A stretch of 27,814 bases of DNA, from positions 1 to 27,814 of IMG/VR virus record IMGVR_UViG_3300025103_000121; one strand, given 5' to 3'. The first letter of the stretch is position 1. Every line of letters starts with the position of its first letter. The position numbers and the translations under genes are program-made. Positions 3,437 through 25,261 of this stretch are shown here, piece by piece. Origin of the DNA: a virus. Its lineage: Duplodnaviria; Caudoviricetes. Below the pieces are notes generated by a model that did not search any database, was not told where the DNA came from, and worked only from the letters and a program-made list of their open reading frames with translations.

Positions 3437-6400
3437 ATGGCTGTTTCTAATAAAAAATATGTACAATTATCTGGAGCCTTTACAGGTACATCTAGGATAA
3501 TATTTCAAATTAATATGTTAAGTGATGCTGGAACTTCTTGGAAGTGGAGAAAAAAACCATTAACCGCTGATGGAGCTTATACTGAATGGACAACAGTTAG
3601 CAGTTATAATTTAAATACATCTATATCATTATCTGATGGTATGAATATAAAATTTACAAGAACTAGTAAGTCAACTTATCATAATGGTGATAAATGGGTG
3701 TTCACTTGTTATCCCGATTTAAAATTAACTAGTGGTACTGATACAGGATATGACCATATAGATGTAATAGAAAGAGGTACAAAAAAAGATTTAGTTGCTT
3801 TAAATAGCAATAGTGGAGCAGTAACAGTTGTAGAGGATTATGAAAGTAACACTCCTGCTATAAGTGAAACTATGGGGTTATTGTCTCCTAATGTTGGTGG
3901 ATATGATATAGCTAGAAAGAATAAAGAATTATATGTTGCATGTGGAACAGATAATGACCCTAAGTGGATAGGTTATACAAAAAACGGAAATTGGGCTGGT
4001 GAGTTAGGTGATTATGCCTTTATAAATGAAAAAGCATATACAGAAGTTACAATGAGCTCTGTTGATAAAATGACATTTGATGACCACGTTCTTTTAGAAG
4101 GTGGAGCGGCTTCATTTAGTGCGGCTAAATTAGTTGTTGGAATAAATCACGGTTCTAATAAGTTGTATGTTCAAAACCTAACAGATAGTAAGATATATGT
4201 TTTTACCTTAGGTGGTAATGCACTTTGCATAAGAATTAATACAGCACAGTTTACTGGCACAGATTTAAGTAGTTATGAATGTAATGGCGTAGCAGTTCTG
4301 ACTCAAGCACAAGAAGAAGATGCGGCTAATGAACTTGAATTTTGGAGCATTCCTAATACTGGAAGTAATATAGGTCAATCTACAAATAGAGATAAAACAT
4401 TTTCTGTTCCAAGACCTATTACAGATAATGAATACATTACTGAATTTTCTGATTTCTTAATAGTATGCAGTAATTATGATTATTGGACTGGTACAAGAGA
4501 CCACCATCTAGTTTTTTCAGCAAAGGGCACCCTTGGTGAAATGCGGTGGAGTGGTACAAGCGAGACAAATGGTGGTTGTGTGTTTAAATATGATAATGGG
4601 GCAAAGGCTACAAGCTTAACTGAGTCAAACTATGTCAATATTACACCAATATATGGTGATTATTCTGTAGATGATAGTACTGGAGCTGGATTTGCTCATT
4701 TTTCATACGAGGATGATGGTGAAAATGATAGCCAAGAATATTTTACGGGGTCTGGTTTAGATGGACTTGTAGAACATAGAAGTATAGCATTAGTTCAGAA
4801 TTATAATCTTGCTTTCGCTGGTTATGATGGAGATGGAGCTAATCCACAAATAGCATTTACTTGTGAATTAAGACCACCAGAATATTATAGCAATAATTAT
4901 GTAAAAGGAATTGCTGGTTTATGGTATGATGGGGGTGGTTCTTCTGATATAGATAATGGTAATGCTTTTGTCTTAAGATGGGTTACATCAATTATTGGCT
5001 ATGGTAATAATGGTGCACAAAAAAATCCAATACTTGCTCATTCTATGGATTATGGAAATTCAGAAGACCAAAGAGAAGCGGCTTGGATTGCGATGTCCGA
5101 TAGGTTTGGTTTAACAGGTGTCCGCAGAATTTGCGAAGATAGTTTTTGGACTGGAACTGATAAGCAGGCAAGAGTTATAAAAGCGTTTGCACCAGCCACG
5201 CATCCTTATCATTGTGCAGGTAGCAATATTAACCAAGGTAAGAAATTACATTTCTATGGAGATAAAGATAATAATGGTTATAGAAGTGGTATAATAGCAA
5301 GTAGAATGGAAGATGAAGATTCTGTAAGAATCTTTGTAGTTCCTTATCAAGGTGGTAATTATACTTGGTCTAGTAATAGCTTATGGGTTTTTCCTAATAG
5401 CAATGAACAGCCATATACTGCTTTTAATACAAGTGCCTATACTAGAACTAAACCAGTTATGAAAGAAGTTAACTTACCATTAAGCGGTGATAGTGGCGAT
5501 GGTTATTTTAATATAGGCGATAGGGTATATTGGTGTGCTAATGCAAATAATCTACCAAGTACAAACGAAGACGAAGTATGGTCAGCTATGGTTCCAGTAG
5601 GTGGTGGTAATACAACCTATCACGGAAATTCTACAGAGGCTTTATATAAAGTACCTTGTGATGCAGATGATACAACTAGAGATATAGCAAATATACTTTC
5701 AGGTGGTACCGCTTGGTTAGAGACTAGCGCACTCGCAGAACACGGAGTAACAACTTGGACAGGTGCTACTGTTGAAAAAGTTTTTTATAAATTCTCTATT
5801 GTATATGACGGCTATCAAGAAAGTACATTATTAGACTTTACACCAACATTTAAAAAATCAGATGATAGTGAATTTGATAAGGCTGTAACTTTTGAAGTTA
5901 AGATTGGTCAGGGTGCAAATACACCCATAACACCAAGAGTGACTGCTATAGCTCTGTATAGAGCAGATGATAGTGAAGCTACTGCAAGTGACCCAGAGAA
6001 TTTATATAGGTTTGTAGAGGAGATTCCATTATATAAGTTTAGTAGTTCAAATGATTACTGGTCATATACTGTTGTAGACAATGGAGATGTTGAAGGTACA
6101 TATGGTGCTATAAATGGGATAGCAGAAACTATGCACTCTTTAGATATTAAGTATAGTTTAAATGCCACTTTAAATGGCTATATGTTTGTAGCAAATGCTA
6201 GTCACACTCAATTTGAAGACGCAGAAAATGTTATTTTTAGGTCTCAACCCGGTAAGTATTCTATCTTTGATTGGTCAAAAGATTTTCTACAAGTAGACTT
6301 TGTTCCTACTGCTATTGAAGGATATATGGGTAAGTTATATGTGTTTGGTGAAAGTCAAATGGCTATTATCAATCCAGAATCCCTTATTATTGAAGAAGAG

Positions 6401-12684: not shown

Positions 12685-15600
12685 TTGGCTGAACCACAAC
12701 AATGGTCCCCTAAGATGGAAGAAGACCAGATTAGAGGGGTCATAGACCAATACAATAAGCAACCTCAGCTATTTGATGGCAGAGATGATGACCTTGAATC
12801 TCTAGAGGAACACGCACACTACTATAGAATACCTTTTACTCGTACTAAAGAGCATCAGGATAACTATGTGATGAGTATCCTTAAAAATGCTGGGCAAGGC
12901 TGGGCAGAAGGATTCTCTACACTTCCACTAGCTGGAAAAGCAGAACCAAAAGATACTTGGCAAGCAATAGCTAATAACCTAGGACACTTAGCAGGTTTTG
13001 TAGGATACTTACCCGGTGGAAGAGCATTAAAATCTTTAGGTGTACTAAAGTCATATACAAAATTAACAGATGGACTTCGTGGTGTATCTGTTCCAATGGC
13101 AGTTGCTAGTAAAGCACAAGGTGTAGTTGGAAAAGCTATTAGACCTATATTAAAAGACTTACCAGAATGGGCAACTTCAGGTATTGTTGGAGATATGGCA
13201 CAGGGTGCTTTCCATTTAGGTACTGCTAGTGCTGTGTCAAGTTGGACTCACGGCATAGATGAGATATTTCATTCAGCAGGATTTGGAGCTGTTGCAGGTA
13301 GTGCTTTTAGAGGCATTGGTAATATGAAAGGCTTTGGTCAAAGAATTAATATGAATCAGATGAAGCCTAATGGTAGTCCTGATTTTTCAAAAATAAGTGA
13401 TGGACAAAAGGCTGACTTGGCTTTAAGGACTATGGCAGGTGCCGCTTTTCAAGGGTTACCTTCTACCTTACAAGGAGCTACTACTGAAGAGCAAGTCTAC
13501 GCATATGCAATGGGTTCTTTCTTTGGATTTAAAGAAGTACCTTATCAAACTAGAACCGCCAGAGAATTTCTAGCAGAAAGTTTTAAAGAAAAATATGGTC
13601 CAGACCCAGAGATGAATCCAAAATGGGATTCTCTTACTTCTGAAATGAAAGAAATCGTGAAGATGGATTTCCAAGAAACATTTCAATACTCTGCTGAAGG
13701 ACCTAGCGAAACATCACACCTCTTATTTGATTTATTAAGTCATCCAGATAGAAAGATGGACTTAGATGCTATTGAAAAGATAGCTAGAGAGTATGGTGAA
13801 TCATATGAGGTTGACCCAGTTACAGGAGAGATTAACGCCAAAGCATTAAGTAAAAAGGAATTAGACGAATATAAAGAAGACTTTATAAAAGAAGGTAGAG
13901 CTGATAACCCAGAAGATTTAGATATGCACATTCAAGCTATCGCAGATATTCCCGGTAGGCTAGTAGGAAAAAATGGCTATGTAGAACAAGTGTTCCCCGA
14001 GTTATCAACTGTAGAAAGAATAGATATAGCTGACGCTATATTTAAAAAATGGAAAGGACTACAAAATGAAGACTCAAAACCAATCCCGGGAGCAGAGCAA
14101 AAAATCATTAGCTTTATTGAAGAAAATTATGGAAGGAAGCTCACGGACAATGAACAAGGATGGTGGAGACGTTGGGCTGAAACTAATAGAAAAAAACAAT
14201 GGGTGGAACAAGTTGAAATCAAAGATGAAGAAGTTGGAATACTTAATTCTAAAACCAACTCAGCAGGAAACAAAAAAGACCTCTCTCAAGAACCGCTTAT
14301 TATCCAAAGTCTGCACGATGCTGAATATAAGAGATTAAACGGTCAAGACCCTGACCCTCAAGACCATTTCTTTAGGGTATTAGACCACGTTATCTTTAGA
14401 GGTAAGGAACACGACTTAAAAAGAGCTGAGCAAAATATTGCTAGGCAGGAAATGGTTCGTATACAAAACTCTAAAGAAAGAGACCTATATGACTATGATA
14501 CATTAAGAGACCACGTTGAAGGTTATGCTAAGAATCATATGGAAAATGTGATGAAGAAACTTCACGAAAAGATGTGGGAAGATGGTTACTATTACTTTGG
14601 AGGTAAGGGTGATGCTAAGAAGATGTTCTTTGTTAAGATACATCCGGGTTTAAAGAAGCCACCTAAGTATGACCCCGTTACTAACAAGCCTTTGCCACAG
14701 GAATTTAAAAGAGGTATTGTTAAAAAGGTTCTTAGAAAGATAAGAAAAGTTCTTAGAGATAATGGTACTGAAAATGTTAGAAGAGCATATAGAGAGGGTA
14801 GAGATGAATGGAAGAAAATGTATCCGGGTATTGAGAATGCTAATGAGATGTATGATAGGATGTTTGTATCCAATGCCTTATATGATTTAACTAATAATGG
14901 TTACAGTACAAAGATTAAAGATTTAGATGCGGGTTTAAAAGATGTATTAGGACCGGGGTTTATTAATGACCCTAAAGCTTTTAATAAGAGGGCACAAATC
15001 TGGTTTAATTCAGGTTTATCAGCTAATCCAACTGAAATTTTCAAGCATATGAGGAAAGTTCTTGGAAATGATAATGATTTTATGGGTTCAGATTTCCGGG
15101 TAGGGATATTCTATGATGCCGATGGTAGACAAAGTATAAAATACTTTGACCAAAAGAAATTAACAACTGAATCTGAGGCACTAAAGTATACTGAAATAAC
15201 TGATGGTGCTATAGTAGCTAGAAGTGAAGTTGTTGATGCTTTAAATTTAGACAAAGGTCTGCCTACTGATGGTGGAATGAATAAATCATTTATTGTATCT
15301 CCAGATGCGGTTAATGGTGCTTTACTAGGTAAGTATGCTATACATAAAGCATCCCCAGAATTAGAAGCTTATATGAGAGAGAACAAGATTCATATGCTAA
15401 TGCCAGAGTCTGCTGTTAAGCAATCGGGTAAACGTAAAGATTCTGCTGGAGACTTGCAATCTCATATAGATTATGACACAGGAGAAGTATCTATCAGTTT
15501 TGATGGTACACCTTTTAGACTACCTGCGGCTCATTTTAGAACCGTTATGTCTGAAATCACTACAAAGAAGATGTTAAAACCATCTCAACTCCCAAAACAG

Positions 15601-18600
15601 ATGTACTCCGTATTGTCCTCATATGGCTTTAAAGGTATTGAAGCAGAGGCTATGAAGGATATGTATCAAACTCTCTCTGAGAAGGCTATTAAAGGGACTC
15701 CTGAAGGTCGTGAGAAGTTAGAAGAGTATATGAGGAAGCGGGATACTAAAAGTATTGAAGATGTGGTAGAAAATCTCGAAGAAATACCGATAAATAAACT
15801 CTTTGAATTAATAAGGGACCCTGAACATCCTAAACTATCACAGAAACTTTATGAAAAGATTTTAAAAGTTAATCACGAATACGTAGAAGCCTTAGCAGAA
15901 GAAGGTGAAGTATCTAGAGATGAATTGGAGATGTATAAAGAAAAGGTAGCTGATTACGAAAGCGTTATAGAAAGATTAAGTAAAGTCTTTCCAGATGGCT
16001 CCGTAGGTGCTTATATGCATAAGTTCTCTAGAGATTATCGTATGCAGGCTATGCGTAATTATGTGGTACAGAAATTAACTAGACCCAGAATTGATAATAG
16101 TGCGTCAGCTAGAATGAGACCTTATGAAGTAGGGTTCCATAATCATCCAGAAATGGCAAAGCTAAATACTAAAGAAGGACAAGATATGTTCTTTTTAGAT
16201 GAAGGATTCAGAGAGCTTGTTATTAAAGATGATATGTTTAGAGGTGGACGTATAAAGTTAGGTGAATTATGGGAGACTAGGGAAGAGTATACAGGGGTAC
16301 TTAAAGATAAGATAGACCAGATACTTCACGGATTAGTAATGCGTGTTCCTATGGACTCGATATCTGGAGCTCATAGTCTCAAATTTCAAGGGTTTACTGG
16401 AGTAGATGGGTTAGGAGCCTTATTACACCCAAGAACTATGAAAGCCCTAGGTGGTGCAGATTTAGATGGTGATAAAGCAACTATATTTTTTGGTGGAGAA
16501 AGTCACGGATTTAAACAGAAGTGGCGTGAAATGTATCACGGTGCTAAAGATGAGTATGTAGACCCTGTAACTAAAGCTGAAAAACATAATAAAGAAGCTA
16601 TAGACCCTAAGACAAAGCAGTCTTATAGAGATGATTTAGCTATTAGAGATGAAGATACATTAGAGAAATCCTATCACCCTACGGCACAATACTCTCCTTA
16701 CTGGAGAGAATTTATGAGTAGAGGTGCTTATGGTGGTCGTGATATGTTGGGAGTTGCAGTTACAAGAAGAATGGCTGTGCTTGGTGCTTATGACGCAATA
16801 AGGTCTTTTGATATTGATGGTAAGCAAGGATATGAAACTCAAGATATTGTTATCAAAGGCTCTGGTAATGTTGATTTACAGAAGGATGGGGAGATTTGGG
16901 TTGAACAAGTTATCTTAAGTAAGGATAAATACAGTGTCCCTTACTATGACAATAAGGATGGTGTTTTAAGAAGGCTTGAATTTGAGATAAGAAAAGGTGA
17001 TGTAGACCTACAAAGATTTAGAGAGCTATCTAGAGCCGCTATTGCACTAGGCTCTGACCCTATGGATGAAGTTGGTTTAAAAGGTGACCTATTTGAAACT
17101 AAGATTTTTGATACTCTTTTTAAAACAAGTGTATATGAGACCAATGAAAAAGGTGTAGCAACAGAGCGTAATGAGAGATTGTCTAGGTATATAAATGAAG
17201 AAGATAGTAAGATAGGTTATTTAAAAAAGAAAGGTTTACACGGGCAGTTCTTAGAGGCTAACTCTTTATTGTATGGTAAAAATCATAGAGATAATAGACG
17301 GTGGAGCTATGCAGAAATCCAAGCGGGTATCCATAAACTTAATTGGTTACCAGAGAGAACCAGAAATACGTTCCTCCCGCAATTAGCAGAATCTATGAAA
17401 GAAATTAATTGGTCTGATAATATCTTTAGACACATTAATGAAGGTGTATTAAATAAAATTTACTTTGACCATAATGAAGTTGTTAAGGGTGCAGATTGGT
17501 TAAAGAATATTATGGGTAGAGAATCTATGGCTACTCAAAAAGGTAGGTTCATCCAAGGTATACTTGATAAGAAACTATATGATGAAGCACAATTAAAGAA
17601 GCTTGCTATGGATGAAGAGGGTTTTATTAAGTTTATTACCTCTGAGTTTACTCGTAAGGATGGCTCTAAAGGTAAGGCTATGGGTCAAATACCTTGGGAA
17701 TTTAAACCATTAAACGCATCAGACTATTATACAAGAAGAGCATATCTAGAACACCTACTCCTTAAAGGTGAAGATTTTTTAGTAAATGATTTAAGTGATA
17801 TGGCATCCTTAAAATCAATAACTGATGTAATAAAGAAAAATAAAATAGGTGATGAGAGGATTGATTACATTCATAAGAAGTCTGATGAAATCAAATCTCA
17901 AGGAGTTCACTTAGCAAAACAAAGGAGAGCTCTAGATGATGCCCTTACTGAACATTATGAAGGTCGTGAAGGTCTTAAAGAAAGTGAAGAACTACGCAAA
18001 AGTTTTGGACTTGACGACAAAAGTACTCAAATCAGTGACCAAATTCAAACGGACAAAGCGATAAGAGATTTTAAAGTAGAATTGTCAGAAGGAGAACGAG
18101 ATTTATTTGATATGTTATTTATGGGAACTTATCAAAGAGCTGACAGAGAAAGAATGAAAGCTATTGAAGCTTATAAAAAGGTTAGACCTGAAGTTGTTAG
18201 AGAGCATAACTACTTATTTAAATCAATGAAGAACACTTCGCTGGTGCGTGCTGGACTAACTTCTAAAGAAATATCTGATAAGAATTTAAAAATCTTCTTT
18301 ACTAATTATGACCACATAATGAAGAAGGCTAAAGTAAATCTATCTAAAGAACAAGAAGAGTTGTTAATGAGAGAGGCTACAGAAAAAGAACCTGTAAAGT
18401 CTTTCTTTGATGAACACGGTAATAAAATTAAGGGAGAATTTGTAGATGCCAATTTAATAAATGATAAAGAACGACAATACCTAGATGAAGTTGGTCCCTT
18501 TACTGGGTTATATAAGGGTGAAATTAAAGACCCTGAGCTACTTAGACTGTATGATAGTTTAACTGAGCACTTATCTCACTATCATAACTTAGATACTGTT

Positions 18601-21486
18601 AATCTAAATGGTTTCTTTAGAGGATTATTTAAGAAAGATATAAATCAAGCTACTAAAGTAGACCTACAACAACTTGACGCCGTCTTTAAAGAGATGAGAG
18701 ATGGTACTTGGTGGCGTAATACTGTAGAATGGCTGACTGGTAAGGATAAGAATCCTGAGATAAAGAAAGCATACTACTGGATGTTCCCTAAAGCTATTGA
18801 TAGAGACTTAATGCGTAACCCTGCTATGATGGAATGGTTAGAGGATGTAGGACCCTTTAAAGATAAGATAGGTAATACTATTGAAAACGCTAGGACAATT
18901 AGACCTACATCAGTTATAGGAGAAATACAACAGTTATCTGCTAGAACTCAAGAGTTATCTATGCAGAAGTTTGAAGAAGAGACTGAATTGTTTAGAGAAG
19001 AGCTTAGACCTTATATTAACGCTGTTGAAGATGGTGACATCTTATTTAAAATAGCAGTTGCTGATAGGGAATTAGGCTATATGAAGGCTAAGTTAAGAAA
19101 AGAATATAAAGCTGATAGTCATAACCTTACAGCTAAGGAGATGGAGTATCAAAATAATTGGAATGAGACTAGAAAAGATTTCGATATGATAAAATATAAA
19201 ACCTATGTGATACCTACTAAAGATGGCAATGTTCAAATGACTGGTGAAGCTATTATAGGTAAAATAAATAATATCATAACTAAGACCAATATGAAGACTC
19301 ATAAATGGTTAAAAGGGGACCCTGAGAAGATTCAAGAATGGCTAAGTATATCTGAACCTAATGGAAGAATAAGCTGGAGTGGTTTAGATAAACTTAGAAG
19401 GAAATTTCACGAATACATTAAAGCTACTATAAAAGAAAATAAGAGTATTCCTATTGAAGATTTAGGGATAGACGGCTTAAGGCAGATTGTTAAAAGAGTT
19501 GCTCTAAGTCAAACCCCGTATGCACTTAGAAGTAATAGGACTTTAAATGAATCTCGTAAAAGATTAAGGATTGATAAGTTTGATGAGACAGGAGACCTTG
19601 GTGCTGAATACTACTTCCCTCATATGTCTTTTAATAGAAAGAAAGCAAAAAATAAATTAAAGGGTGCCGTTAAACATATAATGGAAAACCCTAATATGAC
19701 TCCTGAGCAAAAAGAAAAAGATATTCGTAAGGTTAATCATCAGTTTAAACAACTTACTGGTGACTTTATGGCTAAAGATGATATGGGTGAGAATTTTAAC
19801 CTTATGCAGGATGTGATGCGAGAGATGGCTTTAGGTAAGAAACAGAAAGCTCATAATATTTTAACTAATGATTTAAAAAGAGTTGGTAATCAATTTAGTA
19901 GAGACGCACATATAGGTGGATGGGAGATGACTCCTGAAGCATATGAAGCTTATATGAAAAATGCAATTAGCACTTTCTATAAACAAGCAATGCAATTATC
20001 TGCAAGAACTGCTATGTTTAACTTTAATAATACTTTCTTTAAACAGACTGGTGATGGAAAACTAACTAATAACTGGATGGATTTCTTTAGGTTGTATACT
20101 CAAAGTGCTATGGGTTATCCTACTCATATACCCGAAAGAATAGCGGAAGACCCCGCTATGAAGATAAAAGGTACTGCTTATAAGTGGCTTGCTGATTCTA
20201 CTGCAAAGAAAAGAATTGATTTTATAGGTAAAAAACTTGGGGTGGGTCGTAAAGAGCTTGAACGGATGAAGTTAGATGAGGAAACGATTGATGAATTAAG
20301 TGGAGTAGAGTATAAAACCCTTGAACGATGGGGAGCGAGAGAAGCAAAATGGCAGTTAGCATCCTTATTGGCTCACCCTAAGAGTTCTATTGCAAACCTT
20401 TATGGTGGTACTGTACATACTTGGATAAGTGCAGGCTATGATAACATTAAGAAGGCTAGAAACTTTGAATTTCTGAAGACTAATATTAATCCTAAGTGGA
20501 ATAGTATGAAGGATGTTGAGAAATGGATGCAAGAACTTGGTATCATTGAAGAATTTTTAGTTTATGAGGCTGGTCTTAATCCTAAACTTAAAGGTAAAAA
20601 GACTCAAGCCTTTATTAAAGAGGCTTCGCAACGCATAAGAAGAGACCCTAATATGCCTGATGAAGGCTTACTTGCCTTAAGTAAAAAACACGGTCTAACT
20701 GAAAGAGCTTTCCAAGCGGCGGCATCTTTTATGCGTATACCTGAGCGTATTCTTCGTAGAGATTCGTTTATGGCTCATTATATACAGGCAAAACAACAAT
20801 TTGGTGGAGCTATTAAAGATTATAATAGTCCATTCTTAATAAATTATGCTAAAAAGGGTGTAAAAGGAACTCAGTTCTTATATAGTGCACCTTTTCGTCC
20901 TTTATGGACCAACAGCACTCTGGGTAGGGTTATGTCTCGTTTCCAATTATGGAGTTGGAATAGTGTTCGCTTTAGAAATGACGTAATAAGGCGAGCAGAA
21001 ATTGCAGGTTATCGTCAGGGTACTCCTGAATTTGAAACCTTTAAACGTCTAGCAATGGCTGATTTGTTTATGTTAGGTTTATCTAATGTATTTGCTTACA
21101 GTTTATTTGAAAACGCACTTCCAGCTCCTTGGAATTGGTTCCAAGATACAGCAGATTGGATGTTTGGAGACGAAAAAGCAAAAGAAAGAGCTTTCTATGG
21201 TTCTGCTATTGGACCACTTCAAGCTGTTACACCACCGGCACTAAGGCTATTACCACCTATGTTTAAGTGGATGGTCAGTGGAGACGGAGAACAGCTCGCT
21301 GATTACTACCTTTGGACAATCCCTCCGTTCGGTAGATTAGCACGGGATATAGTAGGTCCCGGTGGAGCCATAGAAAATCCTTATTATGCTATTACAAAAT
21401 TTACTGGATTACCAGTAATGCAAATGGCTTCAGCAATAACTAGTGAGAAAAAAGGAAGAACTCGAGGTAAGTTTATATATGGATAA
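12685..21486 (+). CDS. Giant virion protein containing a single-chain two-barrel (DxDGD) RNA polymerase
   Basis: 2933 aa; ordered motifs TDG (aa 839-841), SAVK (909-912), RVP (1220-1222), GGADLDGDK (DLDGD aa 1259-1263, nt 16459-16473); TTG start with TAAGGAGG; lies in the ejection-protein block. Confidence 0.85.
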   Translation: MAEPQQWSPKMEEDQIRGVIDQYNKQPQLFDGRDDDLESLEEHAHYYRIPFTRTKEHQDNYVMSILKNAGQGWAEGFSTLPLAGKAEPKDTWQAIANNLGHLAGFVGYLPGGRALKSLGVLKSYTKLTDGLRGVSVPMAVASKAQGVVGKAIRPILKDLPEWATSGIVGDMAQGAFHLGTASAVSSWTHGIDEIFHSAGFGAVAGSAFRGIGNMKGFGQRINMNQMKPNGSPDFSKISDGQKADLALRTMAGAAFQGLPSTLQGATTEEQVYAYAMGSFFGFKEVPYQTRTAREFLAESFKEKYGPDPEMNPKWDSLTSEMKEIVKMDFQETFQYSAEGPSETSHLLFDLLSHPDRKMDLDAIEKIAREYGESYEVDPVTGEINAKALSKKELDEYKEDFIKEGRADNPEDLDMHIQAIADIPGRLVGKNGYVEQVFPELSTVERIDIADAIFKKWKGLQNEDSKPIPGAEQKIISFIEENYGRKLTDNEQGWWRRWAETNRKKQWVEQVEIKDEEVGILNSKTNSAGNKKDLSQEPLIIQSLHDAEYKRLNGQDPDPQDHFFRVLDHVIFRGKEHDLKRAEQNIARQEMVRIQNSKERDLYDYDTLRDHVEGYAKNHMENVMKKLHEKMWEDGYYYFGGKGDAKKMFFVKIHPGLKKPPKYDPVTNKPLPQEFKRGIVKKVLRKIRKVLRDNGTENVRRAYREGRDEWKKMYPGIENANEMYDRMFVSNALYDLTNNGYSTKIKDLDAGLKDVLGPGFINDPKAFNKRAQIWFNSGLSANPTEIFKHMRKVLGNDNDFMGSDFRVGIFYDADGRQSIKYFDQKKLTTESEALKYTEITDGAIVARSEVVDALNLDKGLPTDGGMNKSFIVSPDAVNGALLGKYAIHKASPELEAYMRENKIHMLMPESAVKQSGKRKDSAGDLQSHIDYDTGEVSISFDGTPFRLPAAHFRTVMSEITTKKMLKPSQLPKQMYSVLSSYGFKGIEAEAMKDMYQTLSEKAIKGTPEGREKLEEYMRKRDTKSIEDVVENLEEIPINKLFELIRDPEHPKLSQKLYEKILKVNHEYVEALAEEGEVSRDELEMYKEKVADYESVIERLSKVFPDGSVGAYMHKFSRDYRMQAMRNYVVQKLTRPRIDNSASARMRPYEVGFHNHPEMAKLNTKEGQDMFFLDEGFRELVIKDDMFRGGRIKLGELWETREEYTGVLKDKIDQILHGLVMRVPMDSISGAHSLKFQGFTGVDGLGALLHPRTMKALGGADLDGDKATIFFGGESHGFKQKWREMYHGAKDEYVDPVTKAEKHNKEAIDPKTKQSYRDDLAIRDEDTLEKSYHPTAQYSPYWREFMSRGAYGGRDMLGVAVTRRMAVLGAYDAIRSFDIDGKQGYETQDIVIKGSGNVDLQKDGEIWVEQVILSKDKYSVPYYDNKDGVLRRLEFEIRKGDVDLQRFRELSRAAIALGSDPMDEVGLKGDLFETKIFDTLFKTSVYETNEKGVATERNERLSRYINEEDSKIGYLKKKGLHGQFLEANSLLYGKNHRDNRRWSYAEIQAGIHKLNWLPERTRNTFLPQLAESMKEINWSDNIFRHINEGVLNKIYFDHNEVVKGADWLKNIMGRESMATQKGRFIQGILDKKLYDEAQLKKLAMDEEGFIKFITSEFTRKDGSKGKAMGQIPWEFKPLNASDYYTRRAYLEHLLLKGEDFLVNDLSDMASLKSITDVIKKNKIGDERIDYIHKKSDEIKSQGVHLAKQRRALDDALTEHYEGREGLKESEELRKSFGLDDKSTQISDQIQTDKAIRDFKVELSEGERDLFDMLFMGTYQRADRERMKAIEAYKKVRPEVVREHNYLFKSMKNTSLVRAGLTSKEISDKNLKIFFTNYDHIMKKAKVNLSKEQEELLMREATEKEPVKSFFDEHGNKIKGEFVDANLINDKERQYLDEVGPFTGLYKGEIKDPELLRLYDSLTEHLSHYHNLDTVNLNGFFRGLFKKDINQATKVDLQQLDAVFKEMRDGTWWRNTVEWLTGKDKNPEIKKAYYWMFPKAIDRDLMRNPAMMEWLEDVGPFKDKIGNTIENARTIRPTSVIGEIQQLSARTQELSMQKFEEETELFREELRPYINAVEDGDILFKIAVADRELGYMKAKLRKEYKADSHNLTAKEMEYQNNWNETRKDFDMIKYKTYVIPTKDGNVQMTGEAIIGKINNIITKTNMKTHKWLKGDPEKIQEWLSISEPNGRISWSGLDKLRRKFHEYIKATIKENKSIPIEDLGIDGLRQIVKRVALSQTPYALRSNRTLNESRKRLRIDKFDETGDLGAEYYFPHMSFNRKKAKNKLKGAVKHIMENPNMTPEQKEKDIRKVNHQFKQLTGDFMAKDDMGENFNLMQDVMREMALGKKQKAHNILTNDLKRVGNQFSRDAHIGGWEMTPEAYEAYMKNAISTFYKQAMQLSARTAMFNFNNTFFKQTGDGKLTNNWMDFFRLYTQSAMGYPTHIPERIAEDPAMKIKGTAYKWLADSTAKKRIDFIGKKLGVGRKELERMKLDEETIDELSGVEYKTLERWGAREAKWQLASLLAHPKSSIANLYGGTVHTWISAGYDNIKKARNFEFLKTNINPKWNSMKDVEKWMQELGIIEEFLVYEAGLNPKLKGKKTQAFIKEASQRIRRDPNMPDEGLLALSKKHGLTERAFQAAASFMRIPERILRRDSFMAHYIQAKQQFGGAIKDYNSPFLINYAKKGVKGTQFLYSAPFRPLWTNSTLGRVMSRFQLWSWNSVRFRNDVIRRAEIAGYRQGTPEFETFKRLAMADLFMLGLSNVFAYSLFENALPAPWNWFQDTADWMFGDEKAKERAFYGSAIGPLQAVTPPALRLLPPMFKWMVSGDGEQLADYYLWTIPPFGRLARDIVGPGGAIENPYYAITKFTGLPVMQMASAITSEKKGRTRGKFIYG

Positions 21487-21699: not shown

Positions 21700-23320
21700 A
21701 AAGCTTTCAAATAACTCTAAGTCCTTTCTCCCTGATGTAAAGAAGGGCTATAATAAACACATTAAGACTGTAGCTAATGATGTTAGGCGGGATGTTTATG
21801 CTAAGAGCAAGGCTACTATGCAGGATGTCAGTGACTCCTTATTATCTAAAAACGGTTTAGCAACTACTGGTTTAGTAGGTAGTACTGGACTATTAGTAGC
21901 TGATAAAAAAGAATTAATAGACCTTGACTCTGACGGCGTTAAAACAGGTGCCGCTATTATAGGTACTATAAGTGGAGCTCTTCTTGCCGCAGGCTTAGGT
22001 GCTAGAGGTATGAAGACTGTAGTACAAAAGATTAGTAGAGGTAAAGCCTCTAAGGGAGACCTTAGAGGAGCAGGGGTTGGTTTGTGGAGGAATAACTTAC
22101 AACCTGATGCTTATCACGATGTTGCCATACCTTTTTATGGTGGAGGTCCCGCTACACAACTTATGTCTGTAGTAACAGAAATGGCTATGGCGTCTGGACG
22201 TGCTGGTAGGAGATTCTTTAATCCTAAAGAAAGTTATGCTAGTAAAATATCTGGATTACCACAGCATATGGCAAATGATATTACTACATATGAGAAAGCT
22301 GTTAAATCAGCTCAACAAAAGATTGCTGATATAGACCCCAATCTTTATATGGGAAAGGGTGCGGCTAAAGAAGCAGAATATTATAAAGCAATAAAAAATA
22401 TTACTAGACCAGTTACTCAAGCAGAGAAACCTTTACACGCTAAAATGATTAATGATTACATAAACCCCGCTATTTTTAGAGAAAAGCCTAGGCAAGCCCT
22501 AAGTAAATATGCAGAAAGGTTCGTAAAAGAGGTTAATTATAGAGATTTACAGAAAACACACAGAGCTACTATAGGTCCTAAAGCATTAGATAATTTAATT
22601 AAAGCACAAGGTTTGAAACCCGGAGCGGGTAACAAGTACTTTGAATTAACTGGTGCTGGTATGCGTATGGGTGGAGATGTATTAAGAGGTATACAATTTG
22701 ACGCTAGAGCTTATAACCTTTTTAAAAGAGCTCAAAATGCTGGTATGAGTAGGGCTGAATTTATTAAAGGTGCAAAAGAAGCCTTTGGTGATAATGCTGT
22801 GATTCCCCTTACTAATAATAAAGTGCAAATACTATTATCCCCTGCAAGAAAACCCAATATAGACTGGGGTGGTTATGCGGGAACTATAGTATGGGATAAA
22901 ACAAAGCCCGGTAAAGTGGCTTTTATGGCAGATGACTTAAGAGATTTGTTTGGAGTTAAATTAGGTGCTAATGTATTAAACACTTCTCAATCTAAGGTGA
23001 TTAAGATACCAGAGATACTTGAATCTGTTAAAGATAGAGTATTGAAGACTGGTAAGGGTGTTGCATCTGGAAATAAAAAAGAAATGGATGAGCTTGTAGG
23101 TGCTCTTAAAGAAAGTAAGAAAGCTTCAACCTTTGATGTTACTTTTATGACTAAAGGAGATTATAATAATTTATTAGCCATAAAAGATAAACACGTTAAA
23201 GCTTATGGAGATAAAATCCCACTTGAGGATAAGATTGAATTTACTGCTACTAGACTTGGAGCTATAGGTGCTAGTGGCGGCACTGTGGCAGGAGCCTACG
23301 CTTTGGCAACTGACGATTAG
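21665..23320 (+). CDS. Basic hypothetical protein, probable internal virion protein
   Basis: 551 aa, Lys-rich, with Gly/Ala hydrophobic segments near both ends; SD AGGAG upstream; last gene of the + strand arm. Confidence 0.7.
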   Translation: MVNPKTLITAARKLSNNSKSFLPDVKKGYNKHIKTVANDVRRDVYAKSKATMQDVSDSLLSKNGLATTGLVGSTGLLVADKKELIDLDSDGVKTGAAIIGTISGALLAAGLGARGMKTVVQKISRGKASKGDLRGAGVGLWRNNLQPDAYHDVAIPFYGGGPATQLMSVVTEMAMASGRAGRRFFNPKESYASKISGLPQHMANDITTYEKAVKSAQQKIADIDPNLYMGKGAAKEAEYYKAIKNITRPVTQAEKPLHAKMINDYINPAIFREKPRQALSKYAERFVKEVNYRDLQKTHRATIGPKALDNLIKAQGLKPGAGNKYFELTGAGMRMGGDVLRGIQFDARAYNLFKRAQNAGMSRAEFIKGAKEAFGDNAVIPLTNNKVQILLSPARKPNIDWGGYAGTIVWDKTKPGKVAFMADDLRDLFGVKLGANVLNTSQSKVIKIPEILESVKDRVLKTGKGVASGNKKEMDELVGALKESKKASTFDVTFMTKGDYNNLLAIKDKHVKAYGDKIPLEDKIEFTATRLGAIGASGGTVAGAYALATDD

Positions 23321-23370
23321 TCGCTTCCTGTCGTTACTCGTATTTTAATTTGTTACCTTGGACAGTAATT

Positions 23371-23399
23371 GGGGAGCTTGATTGCTCCCCTTTTACTTT
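23371..23399 (+). terminator. Intrinsic terminator at the convergence of the two arms
   Basis: GGGGAGC-TTGATT-GCTCCCC followed by TTTTACTTT. Confidence 0.85.
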
Positions 23400-23400
23400 A

Positions 23401-23589
23401 TTAGTTGTTTAGTCTTCCCATTGCTATCCAGAATAACTCTGGAGTAAGACGCTTTAAATTGCTTTCTCTACTCCTTGTAGCCATTCTCCCGACATATTGA
23501 GCGAGTTCATATTGTATCTGGTCCATTGTACCAGCACCTAGTTGAACTCCTTGCTCTTTAAACAACTCCTTTATTTGTGATTTCGTCAT
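23401..23589 (-). CDS. Small histone-fold-like protein (62 aa)
   Basis: SD AAGGAGG; short helix SQIKELFKEQG, long central helix, KRLTPELF L2-loop/alpha3-like end; resembles bacterial histones by eye. Confidence 0.65.
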   Translation of the reverse strand: MTKSQIKELFKEQGVQLGAGTMDQIQYELAQYVGRMATRSRESNLKRLTPELFWIAMGRLNN

Positions 23590-23612
23590 AAGTCCTCCTT
23601 GTTGTTATTAAA

Positions 23613-23676
23613 GACAGGAGCAGTCAAACCTAGTAGGTAAGGAAAGGACCCTTCTACATCAAAGACTGCTCCCATC
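23613..23676 (-). ncRNA. Stem-loop with pyrimidine-rich loop
   Basis: 13-bp stem GAUGGGAGCAGUC/GACUGCUCCUGUC with two G-U pairs that form only on the - strand; inner GUAG/CUAC helix around UCCUUUCCUU. Confidence 0.55.
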
Positions 23677-23690
23677 AGATTTAAATTTGT

Positions 23691-23729
23691 GGCAGGGGGG
23701 AAAGGTTTGGGAGGATATTACCCCCTGCC
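23691..23729. ncRNA. GC-rich hairpin with anti-SD (- strand) or SD-like (+ strand) loop
   Basis: GGCAGGGGG/CCCCCTGCC perfect 9-bp stem; the 21-nt loop reads UAAUAUCCUCCCAAACCUUUC on the - strand. Confidence 0.55.
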
Positions 23730-23759
23730 GTATGACCTACACAGTCATTAATCGAAAAA

Positions 23760-23932
23760 TAGTGAATGACCCGGTGTCCCCCGCAAACTTGAGCTAACAC
23801 GGTCTGTTTCTCATCGTTACGATATTAGCCGTAATCAATTTCAACGTCCTAACATCTTGCGTTCACTGTCCCTTGGGCGAAGCCCTTTGCAACAGGTCTG
23901 TGCCGGTTTTATGCACATCTTTGCATTCACTA
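23760..23932 (-). ncRNA. Candidate multi-helix, pseudoknotted ncRNA (~173 nt), family unrecognised
   Basis: Closing stem UAGUGAAUG/CAUUCACUA, several internal helices, an 8-bp loop-to-strand pairing, no ORF in the track, GC-richer than the flanking genes. Confidence 0.6.
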
Positions 23933-23944
23933 AGGTCTAATTCT

Positions 23945-24077
23945 TTGTGGTCTCATAGTTAGCCAACCATTCATTTGCCATCCTAATTTCTTTTGTTCAT
24001 AGATTTCTCAAGACCTAAGTCCATCTTTGTCCTCTAATCACTCACTCGAAACTACGAGAGTTAATGTGAGACCACAA
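23945..24077 (-). ncRNA. Candidate ncRNA (~133 nt) closed by an 11-bp stem around a purine-rich interior
   Basis: Perfect inverted repeat TTGTGGTCTCA (23945-23955) / TGAGACCACAA (24067-24077); internal CUCG-UAGUUU-CGAG hairpin. Confidence 0.5.
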
Positions 24078-24079
24078 TT

Positions 24080-24568
24080 CTAATCGCAGTTACTCCCCGG
24101 TATACACTTTGTAGGTGGTACCAATGGGCTGTCGTTTTCATCTCCGGGGTCGTGTGGACCTATGTTGTGGATTTTATTAATAGGATTATCTGTTTGACCT
24201 ATTCTTTTATCCTCTTCGTGTCCCCATTTACTCCCTTCTTTTAATGCTGATATTAAAGAATGTATCTCATTAGCTGTTACTAGTGAGTTTTCTTCATACG
24301 CATTAGTGTGGAGATTGTGTAACCCTTGTATTATGTACTCCATTTCCTGTACTTCTACCTTAAAGGGTTTATTTTGCTTATCTTGTTCCAGCTCTAATAA
24401 ATAAGCAGTTAAATATACTGTGAGGTCTAGTACCTCGTCTATCGCTTCTTCAAGGTTTGTTAAGCCTCTTTCACGCTGTATAGGTACTTCACGTTTATAT
24501 TCTTCCTGTCCTTTATCTAGTCGCTCTTTAATAAGAGTTATTATTTTCTTATTTACGCCGTCCATCAA
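24080..24568 (-). CDS. All-alpha NTP pyrophosphatase (MazG-like) domain protein
   Basis: ERLDKGQEEY...LEEAIDEVLDLTVYL gives the acidic ExxD helix pattern; SD AGGAGG; ATGA overlap with the HNH gene. Confidence 0.5.
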   Translation of the reverse strand: MMDGVNKKIITLIKERLDKGQEEYKREVPIQRERGLTNLEEAIDEVLDLTVYLTAYLLELEQDKQNKPFKVEVQEMEYIIQGLHNLHTNAYEENSLVTANEIHSLISALKEGSKWGHEEDKRIGQTDNPINKIHNIGPHDPGDENDSPLVPPTKCIPGSNCD

Positions 24569-25217: not shown

Positions 25218-25261
25218 GGGGAGCAAGAACGTGTAACTGGCTTAATTGCCTCTTACTCCCC
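25218..25261 (-). promoter_or_regulatory. Intergenic stem-loop (possible processing/attenuation site)
   Basis: GGGGAGUAAGA/UCUUGCUCCCC 11 bp with a U-G pair only on the - strand; nested GGC-AAUUAA-GCC hairpin; no clear U-tract. Confidence 0.55.

Follow-up and report, generated by a model that had tools for sequence, protein, structure and literature searches.

An uncultured phage with double-stranded DNA is represented by a partial genome of 27.8 kb (IMG/VR record IMGVR_UViG_3300025103_000121, 27,814 nt, here called the window). Its largest stretch free of open reading frames (ORFs) is a gap of 490 nt at positions 23590-24079, and it has turned out to be tiled by stem-closed units. The array is real, conserved and uncatalogued, and its units are likely RNA cassettes. 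The first of them, unit A, has a covarying closing stem, and relatives of the phage carry swapped, unrelated units in the same slot. We hold it somewhat probable that the gap serves as an array of cassettes, each folding on its own and likely made as RNA, which would be co-transcribed and cut into small RNAs acting in trans. The units and their principal motifs are the following.

23945..24077, minus strand: unit A, 133 nt, with an 11-bp closing stem, a short hairpin, a kink-turn-like arm and an A-rich linker
24008..24029, minus strand: kink-turn-like motif (C, 3-nt bulge, tandem GA/AG, U-U; the canonical stem is one Watson-Crick pair)
23962..23979, minus strand: conserved bipartite motif of unit A, GGCAAAUG, a 3-nt spacer and GGUUGGC
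23760..23932, minus strand: unit C, 173 nt, with a 9-bp closing stem, multi-branched, first hairpin loop AUAAAACCG
23732..23748, minus strand: 17-nt hairpin of the minimum free energy (MFE) fold, with a 2-nt linker to unit D
23691..23729, minus strand: unit D, with a 9-bp GC-rich stem and a pyrimidine-rich loop with CCUUUC
23613..23676, minus strand: unit E, with a 13-bp stem and apical loop GUCCUUUCCUU, folding z-score -5.0

Domain anatomy and folding of the gap

Five stem-closed domains have been obtained in MFE folds, occupying 426 of the 490 nt, and in four of the five the closing arms are perfect or near-perfect. Both the rank of the gap as the largest in the window and its tiling by five closed domains had been proposed in an initial annotation made from the letters alone, as had its tight borders, and these points have held: unit A begins at the third base 3' of the stop of the upstream 162-aa gene, and unit E ends ~14 nt upstream of the Shine-Dalgarno (SD) sequence of the downstream 62-aa gene. 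The linkers between units are 67-86% AU in the window, except for the 2-nt link between the small hairpin and unit D, which may form a single unit. In the centroid fold no helix connects different domains, and scans of the gap for iterons, direct repeats and shared unit ends have found none.

On the minus strand the whole gap folds with a z-score of -2.80 and better than every shuffle (0/100 as good), compared with -1.72 and 6/100 on the plus strand. The minus-strand scores of the single domains are -3.1 for A, -1.5 for C, -3.0 for the small hairpin, -3.2 for D and -5.0 for E, and in the shuffle test every domain except C is significant by itself. Four domains fold better on the minus strand, and unit D folds better on the plus strand (-20.7 vs -18.1). 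Because D favours the plus strand, the strand assignment leans on operon direction and family motifs over wobble counts. Among 462 segments of 120 nt (15 shuffles each), only 1 of the 25 best-scoring ones reaches the island, at its margin; energy alone is insufficient for the claim, because other parts of the window have stronger local z-scores.

Unit A, a covarying RNA family

The relatives of the phage are marine metagenomic contigs, several of which come from Tara assemblies. Since a direct DNA search nearly fails (single-sequence blastn and nhmmer have found only a near-identical copy, a homologue of unit E and short pieces), the gap has been retrieved in relatives by synteny, using the 162-aa and HNH proteins, and it is by this route alone that the families came to light. 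GGTTGGC has been found <=230 nt past the stop of the 162-aa gene in 37 of 41 distinct sequences. Of the remaining four, two have the variant GGTATGGC and one has GGTTGGA, and the last is a truncated locus. The 37 A sequences make up 10 clusters, with 24 sequences in one of them.

The closing stem has been evaluated with arms anchored by the stop codon and the motif, independently of structure. Cognate arms have been found to pair at -19.3 +/- 2.9 kcal/mol (n=37), compared with -9.1 +/- 3.3 kcal/mol (n=768) for non-cognate arms taken from other clusters, and in 33 of the 37 sequences the cognate arms have been the best of all when set against other-cluster arms. A plain alignment of 16 relatives has revealed compensatory changes in 6 of 10 predicted pairs of the inner hairpin, and a covariance model built from the same 16 relatives with the window excluded has given one match in the window, which is exactly unit A (37.3 bits, E 4.9e-7). 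In a model-fitted alignment of 31 matches, which is biased towards the structure and whose counts retain four poor rows (one spurious gene match and three mis-bounded), 95% of the cells are paired, and both partners differ in 27 of the 30 pairs, a degree of two-sided change that was matched by 0/500 shuffles. Since the closing stem covaries and a window-free model finds unit A, unit A is a real structured RNA family, and the window copy combines the relatives-only model match, the closing stem and both motifs of this family.

These conserved motifs, GRCAAAUG and GGUUGGC, are separated by spacers of 3-24 nt in the 33 units listed, which measure 131-182 nt, and distant relatives have shorter forms. 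In the closest distinct relative unit A is identical at 88/153 positions vs 114/150 for the adjacent gene, A thus drifting faster than the gene, with the motifs retained. The kink-turn-like motif has been read off the sequence against the kink-turn consensus, and an automated finder has been noisy in relatives. UGGCACC is present in 11 of 33 A units, the window version being UGGCUAA. A reversed motif order has been observed in stem-closed units of L052 (about 4330-4400) and, 3' of HNH, of L087, L089 and L090, in which GGTTGGA precedes an ACAAAT/GACAGAAAT-like motif. In prophages of the L106 group, long-spacer matches to the A pattern have been put down to chance, since they are antisense to a long tail-type gene that contains them and have no closing stem.

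Exchange of units among relatives

In relatives, the same slot presents 37 distinct gaps of 78-967 nt with differing combinations of unrelated units. Eleven A-containing orders occur among them, e.g., A, A-B, A-G-B, A-F-B and A-C, and the order in the window is A-C-H-H; where no A is seen (4 of 37 gaps), this is only because the search pattern misses variants. Three more families absent from the catalogues, B, F and G, each combine a two-part core that does not vary with inserts that do, and their closing arms pair; the distinct units number 33 for A, 33 for B, 26 for F, 6 for G and 15 for a short C-type family. Unit G has been found 72/72 identical between phages whose 162-aa proteins are 36% identical. 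Such unit identities across divergent proteins fit a lateral exchange of cassettes, extreme constraint alone being less likely.

Unit B has no A upstream in 14 of 33 cases, and marine contigs found via the F motif carry many consecutive units over up to 1.6 kb. Since A is the one unit that the slots share, and the others turn up elsewhere in its absence, a fixed single large RNA, which had been annotated as one of two options, finds no support. The other option, an array of several small RNAs, has gained from the covariation of A and the different unit combinations in relatives, with unit C left unsupported.

The short C-type family has a covarying closing stem and the invariant core UGAAGCC...AUAAAACCGAC...AAAGCCGGAC; a likeness of this core to half an FMN riboswitch has found no support in Rfam. 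The bases that would form a putative pseudoknot between its loop and 3' end do not vary within the family. Two contigs show a phage RNA cluster in which tmRNA and tRNA-Met are followed by a short C-type unit (L478 181-745 and 1287-1429; L482 690-1250), and in L478 the 5' part of GOLLD lies downstream of that unit. Unit B (L005-L009, L014, L178-L290) has a core of loop-E type, GAAGUA/AGUA, and in the base of its stem an AGGAG that never varies, often a short way upstream of a real SD. Bacterial and archaeal genomes scanned for unit B have returned four matches, none with the structure, and therefore yields no link to a host. Long arrays of many further stem-closed units have also been seen in the marine phage contigs L418, L430, L434, L439, L446, L456 and L463.

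Units C, D and E

Loop AUAAAACCG of unit C is common to the shorter family in relatives, the membership of C being unproven, and only this 9-nt loop and CCGG near the closing stem are shared between the two. The short C-type model R2 has given 9 matches at E>=0.73, none of them on unit C, which also does not carry the invariant core and has been rejected as a member. A pattern scan for window-type unit C has produced 37 matches, of which only the near-identical copy is real. Because the short-family model misses C and no other homologue has been found, we treat unit C as a candidate only.

In units D and E, the CCUUUC motif is largely exposed, with a mean probability of being unpaired of 0.79 in D and a probability of 0.85 in E. 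Unit D is without a U-tail and has not been called as a terminator. Unit E has one homologue (L054/L055), 57/65 identical and with the closing stem retained, although the 162-aa proteins are 42% identical. CCUUUC or the one-base-longer CCUUU(U)C has a high probability of being unpaired (0.68-0.97) in eight units chosen by eye for the motif, six of them from relatives, and the scaffolds differ. We take CCUUUC to resemble the 3' tail of 16S rRNA, i.e., the anti-SD sequence. The ribosome-binding sites (RBSs) of the phages themselves are of the AGGAG type, and among 106 ORFs with an SD in five relatives none has GAAAGGA, as counted with a crude ORF filter and no host baseline.

Genomic context and expression

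The surroundings of the array comprise the following features.

24080..24568, minus strand: 162-aa gene (ORF), upstream neighbour of unit A, conserved in relatives
23401..23599, minus strand: 62-aa gene (ORF) with its SD (23594-23599), final gene of the minus-strand arm
23371..23390, called on the plus strand: hairpin resembling a terminator, where the two gene arms converge
23804..24036, strand not assigned: stretch under a 234-nt RNA contig (two RNA runs, one sample), spanning units A and C

The minus-strand arm carries primase-helicase, Gam-like, winged-helix and HNH genes and the 162-aa gene, then the gap and the 62-aa gene, while the plus-strand genes include an endolysin, a spanin-like gene and genes for very large proteins without family matches. 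For the 162-aa protein no Pfam family has been found, and its PHROG matches are weak and of unassigned function. It ends in a conserved KCIPGSNCD tail (24080-24110, minus strand), which is missing in relatives with an overlapping frame. This frame encodes a run of arginines and has a conserved C-terminal part; in L052 (4273-4497), L053 (4547-4810), L059 (4538-4789) and L065 (4517-4768) it overlaps the 162-aa homologue at its end and continues through a short A, a case of dual coding. Of the downstream gene, annotated as histone-like, the 62-aa ORF has been confirmed, and the histone-fold resemblance stands at the level of a lead (Atlas rows 0.87-0.90, PF00808 on 12-57% of members).

The hairpin at 23371..23390 likely ends the array-carrying transcript, provided that it is also used on the minus strand. 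At this convergent terminator lies the strongest local fold of the window (23281-23400, z about -9.9 on the plus strand, 15 shuffles). A search for sigma-70-like promoters has found none above chance. One further unit, closed by an 11-bp stem, stands by itself between the winged-helix gene and the HNH region (25218-25261, minus strand), and its L002 homologue shows a compensatory change. The 2933-aa protein (12685-21486) contains GADLDGD at residues about 1257-1263, which we take to resemble the catalytic motif of two-barrel RNA polymerases, and this protein may be a virion RNA polymerase; a 600-aa part of it has given no PDB sequence match. No close relative has been found among the cultured phages compared, and helicase homologues, cultured phages and cluster names have provided no host.

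Two RNA runs of one hydrothermal-vent sample have yielded the 234-nt contig, which has 5 differences from the window; of the three differences listed, two are unpaired in the predicted folds and the third turns an A-U into a G-U pair. This contig hints at transcription of the array, and since it bridges A and C it would represent the uncut form at most. Assembled contigs reveal neither strand, ends nor level and could derive from DNA. Over the other 26 kb no long RNA contig has been found, but the runs were picked with the island as query, and missing contig cover proves nothing. Of 33 flanks on the 3' side of A, 17 contain an RNase E-like motif where 8.8 would be expected, a count that kinship inflates. 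This motif and the composition of the linkers are the two features that point to processing.

Proposed mechanism and alternatives

In the mechanism that we propose, the units would be transcribed together with the minus-strand replication operon, and a host single-strand endoribonuclease would cut them apart at the AU-rich linkers, while the closing stems would guard both ends of each released RNA. Short conserved stretches would then bind a partner and act in trans on the host, e.g., on translation. Units D and E may offer anti-SD-like CCUUUC loops to the RBSs of host mRNAs, and A may offer GRCAAAUG and GGUUGGC to host RNA or protein, as a decoy or an antisense RNA. In a broader and rather unlikely version, marine phages would trade RNA-only effector cassettes as a counterpart of anti-CRISPR and anti-defence islands, each unit being directed, as a decoy or antisense RNA, at a host factor of its own: D and E would mimic the 16S anti-SD tail and silence host mRNAs, and A would bind a conserved host RNA end or an RNA-binding defence protein via GGUUGGC.

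Several results weigh against separately acting small RNAs. The fold of unit C is not significant (18/200 shuffles equal it), and no homologue of C beyond the near-identical copy and none of the 17-nt hairpin or of D have been found. The sole RNA contig joins A to C, in a single sample and possibly from DNA. GGUUGGC is about half unpaired in single-sequence ensembles (0.54), and same-strand complements of the two A motifs have been found neither in the window nor in five relatives that are 78-88% complete; only the reverse strand of unit A itself complements them, in the window and in 4 of the 5 relatives. Moreover, an open frame passes through the short unit A in four distant relatives. Unit A also tracks the stop of the 162-aa gene in nearly all gene-bearing relatives, and the loop of unit E can pair with the RBS of the 62-aa gene (-12.6 kcal/mol), both of which fit a role in cis.

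Such a role is an unlikely competitor. Unit A would be a 3' untranslated region (UTR) structure of the 162-aa gene, i.e., a stabiliser, a processing site or a protein-binding regulator, and the last unit would control translation downstream. Besides the pairing of the E loop, it draws on the finding that A-like units are present in 35 of the 37 HNH loci that have the 162-aa gene, where they follow this gene, vs 7 of 18 loci without it, and that B and C-type units often stand immediately 5' of an SD. It is difficult to reconcile with relatives in which the place ahead of the same 62-aa gene is taken by other units (B, H-type) or by small genes, with the L055 copy of E, which sits within a 967-nt array distant from any start codon, and with long many-unit arrays and the tRNA/tmRNA neighbourhood, to which a UTR role is ill-suited. 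The lateral spread of near-identical units, the two-part cores of B, F and C-type units, which stay invariant while their inserts vary, and the conserved HNH nuclease gene upstream would also be expected of selfish or neutral mobile RNA elements, or of undescribed self-cleaving ribozymes, gathering at a tolerant site at the operon end. We regard this as quite improbable: no ribozyme or intron has been matched in Rfam, simple descriptors have found no HDV-like, hammerhead, twister or pistol core, the units share no common ends, and A-like units have not been found in 11 of the 18 HNH loci without the 162-aa gene.

It is very improbable that the whole 490 nt form one large modular non-coding RNA of the GOLLD or ROOL type. 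The dense tiling and the RNA contig across A and C speak for it, but the length and content of the slot vary freely with only A shared, the centroid fold has no inter-domain helix, and units are found alone elsewhere. Hardly credible, finally, is a role of the inverted repeats as DNA, whether as a replication origin, as single-stranded DNA hairpins or as recombination sites. The GC skew switches sign near 23.3-23.5 kb and replication genes lie on the same arm; the switch, however, coincides with the change of the coding strand, the gap is richer in GC (0.43) than its surroundings and free of iterons, the kink-turn-like and G-U features are of RNA type, and unit content differs even among close relatives.

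If units of the cassette array do act on the host, an overlooked layer of ocean phage-host conflict would come into view, and the swapping pattern suggests selection on the RNA repertoire of a phage, as for accessory genes. The locus supplies families with clear boundaries, 60-180 nt long, in which the cores are invariant and nature provides variants, and whose units are amenable one by one to synthesis, probing, pull-down and expression.

Relation to known systems

Rfam 15 covariance models have given 0 matches in the window, with four chance-level ones at E<=10 around the gap, and 0 matches in 20 relatives; in 20 array loci they have recovered only tRNA, tmRNA and GOLLD, none on the units. 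ARAGORN has likewise found 0 in the window and, in relaxed form over 101 loci, none in the gaps after the 162-aa gene, in keeping with the annotation, which had recognised no tRNA or tmRNA. A likeness of unit A to conserved regions of RNase P has no support in Rfam. A T-box riboswitch has been rejected, with no Rfam match, UGGCUAA in place of UGGCACC in the window and no terminator following, and an HNH-guided omega-RNA-like system has been dropped, as A is frequently not found beside the HNH gene. The gap has no direct repeats of the kind that CRISPR repeat-spacer units would show, and a solitary mimic of a host repeat is conceivable.

The C4 and CI antisense RNAs of phages P1 and P4 are small processed RNAs presenting two short recognition stretches, an arrangement of which the two motifs of unit A are reminiscent. 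Identity with them has been rejected on the missing Rfam match and the missing same-strand target pair in the window and five relatives noted above, and no icd, ant or kil family of Pfam or PHROG occurs among the 24 window proteins of this partial genome. ROOL is a large orphan RNA. Like GOLLD (RF02032) and ROOL, the array consists of phage-linked structured RNAs found by comparative genomics; unlike the array, these are single large RNAs of fixed architecture, and it matches neither.

By analogy, the array belongs in kind with orphan phage RNAs, i.e., the T4 band C and D RNAs, the PAK_P3 small RNAs (sRNAs) and the intergenic RNAs of phi14:2. The T4 and PAK_P3 type has been described as lytic-phage non-coding RNAs of about 100 nt, with sRNA2 lying between phage tRNAs and with the functions of bands C and D a puzzle since the 1970s (PMC4933390). 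The C-type unit adjoining tRNA and tmRNA in L478 and L482 is similar, whereas here several unrelated families stand back to back, without tRNAs in the slot, and are exchanged between phages. By blastn of the gap vs a phage collection only a 38-nt match (E 0.01) has been obtained, the T4 and PAK_P3 RNAs being compared no further, and no cultured-phage match covers the gap. The Cellulophaga crAss-like phage phi14:2 has abundant early intergenic RNAs, which are transcribed at higher levels than most genes and are stable through infection; it shares with our case a long intergenic region and RNAs of undetermined function, and differs, as far as described, in the modular structure and swapping seen here (10.1101/2020.03.07.982082). 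No description of these unit motifs has been found in the literature searched, and motifs and relative contigs are absent from the searched supplement parts of the IMG/VR structured-RNA catalogue, with whose candidates an overlap is possible (PMC10690425).

In the way it would work, the array is probably most like the CcsR1-4 or cuckoo RNAs of Rhodobacter, without their membership features. There, RNase E releases a cluster of sRNAs from the 3' UTR of a gene for a small protein, and the sRNAs present anti-SD hairpin loops; they are homologous repeats with a CCUCCUCCC loop and an adjacent DUF1127 gene (PMC8034643). The array, in contrast, has unrelated units, no repeats, a CCUUUC loop, no DUF1127 gene and no Rfam match, and the resemblance would thus be one of operation.
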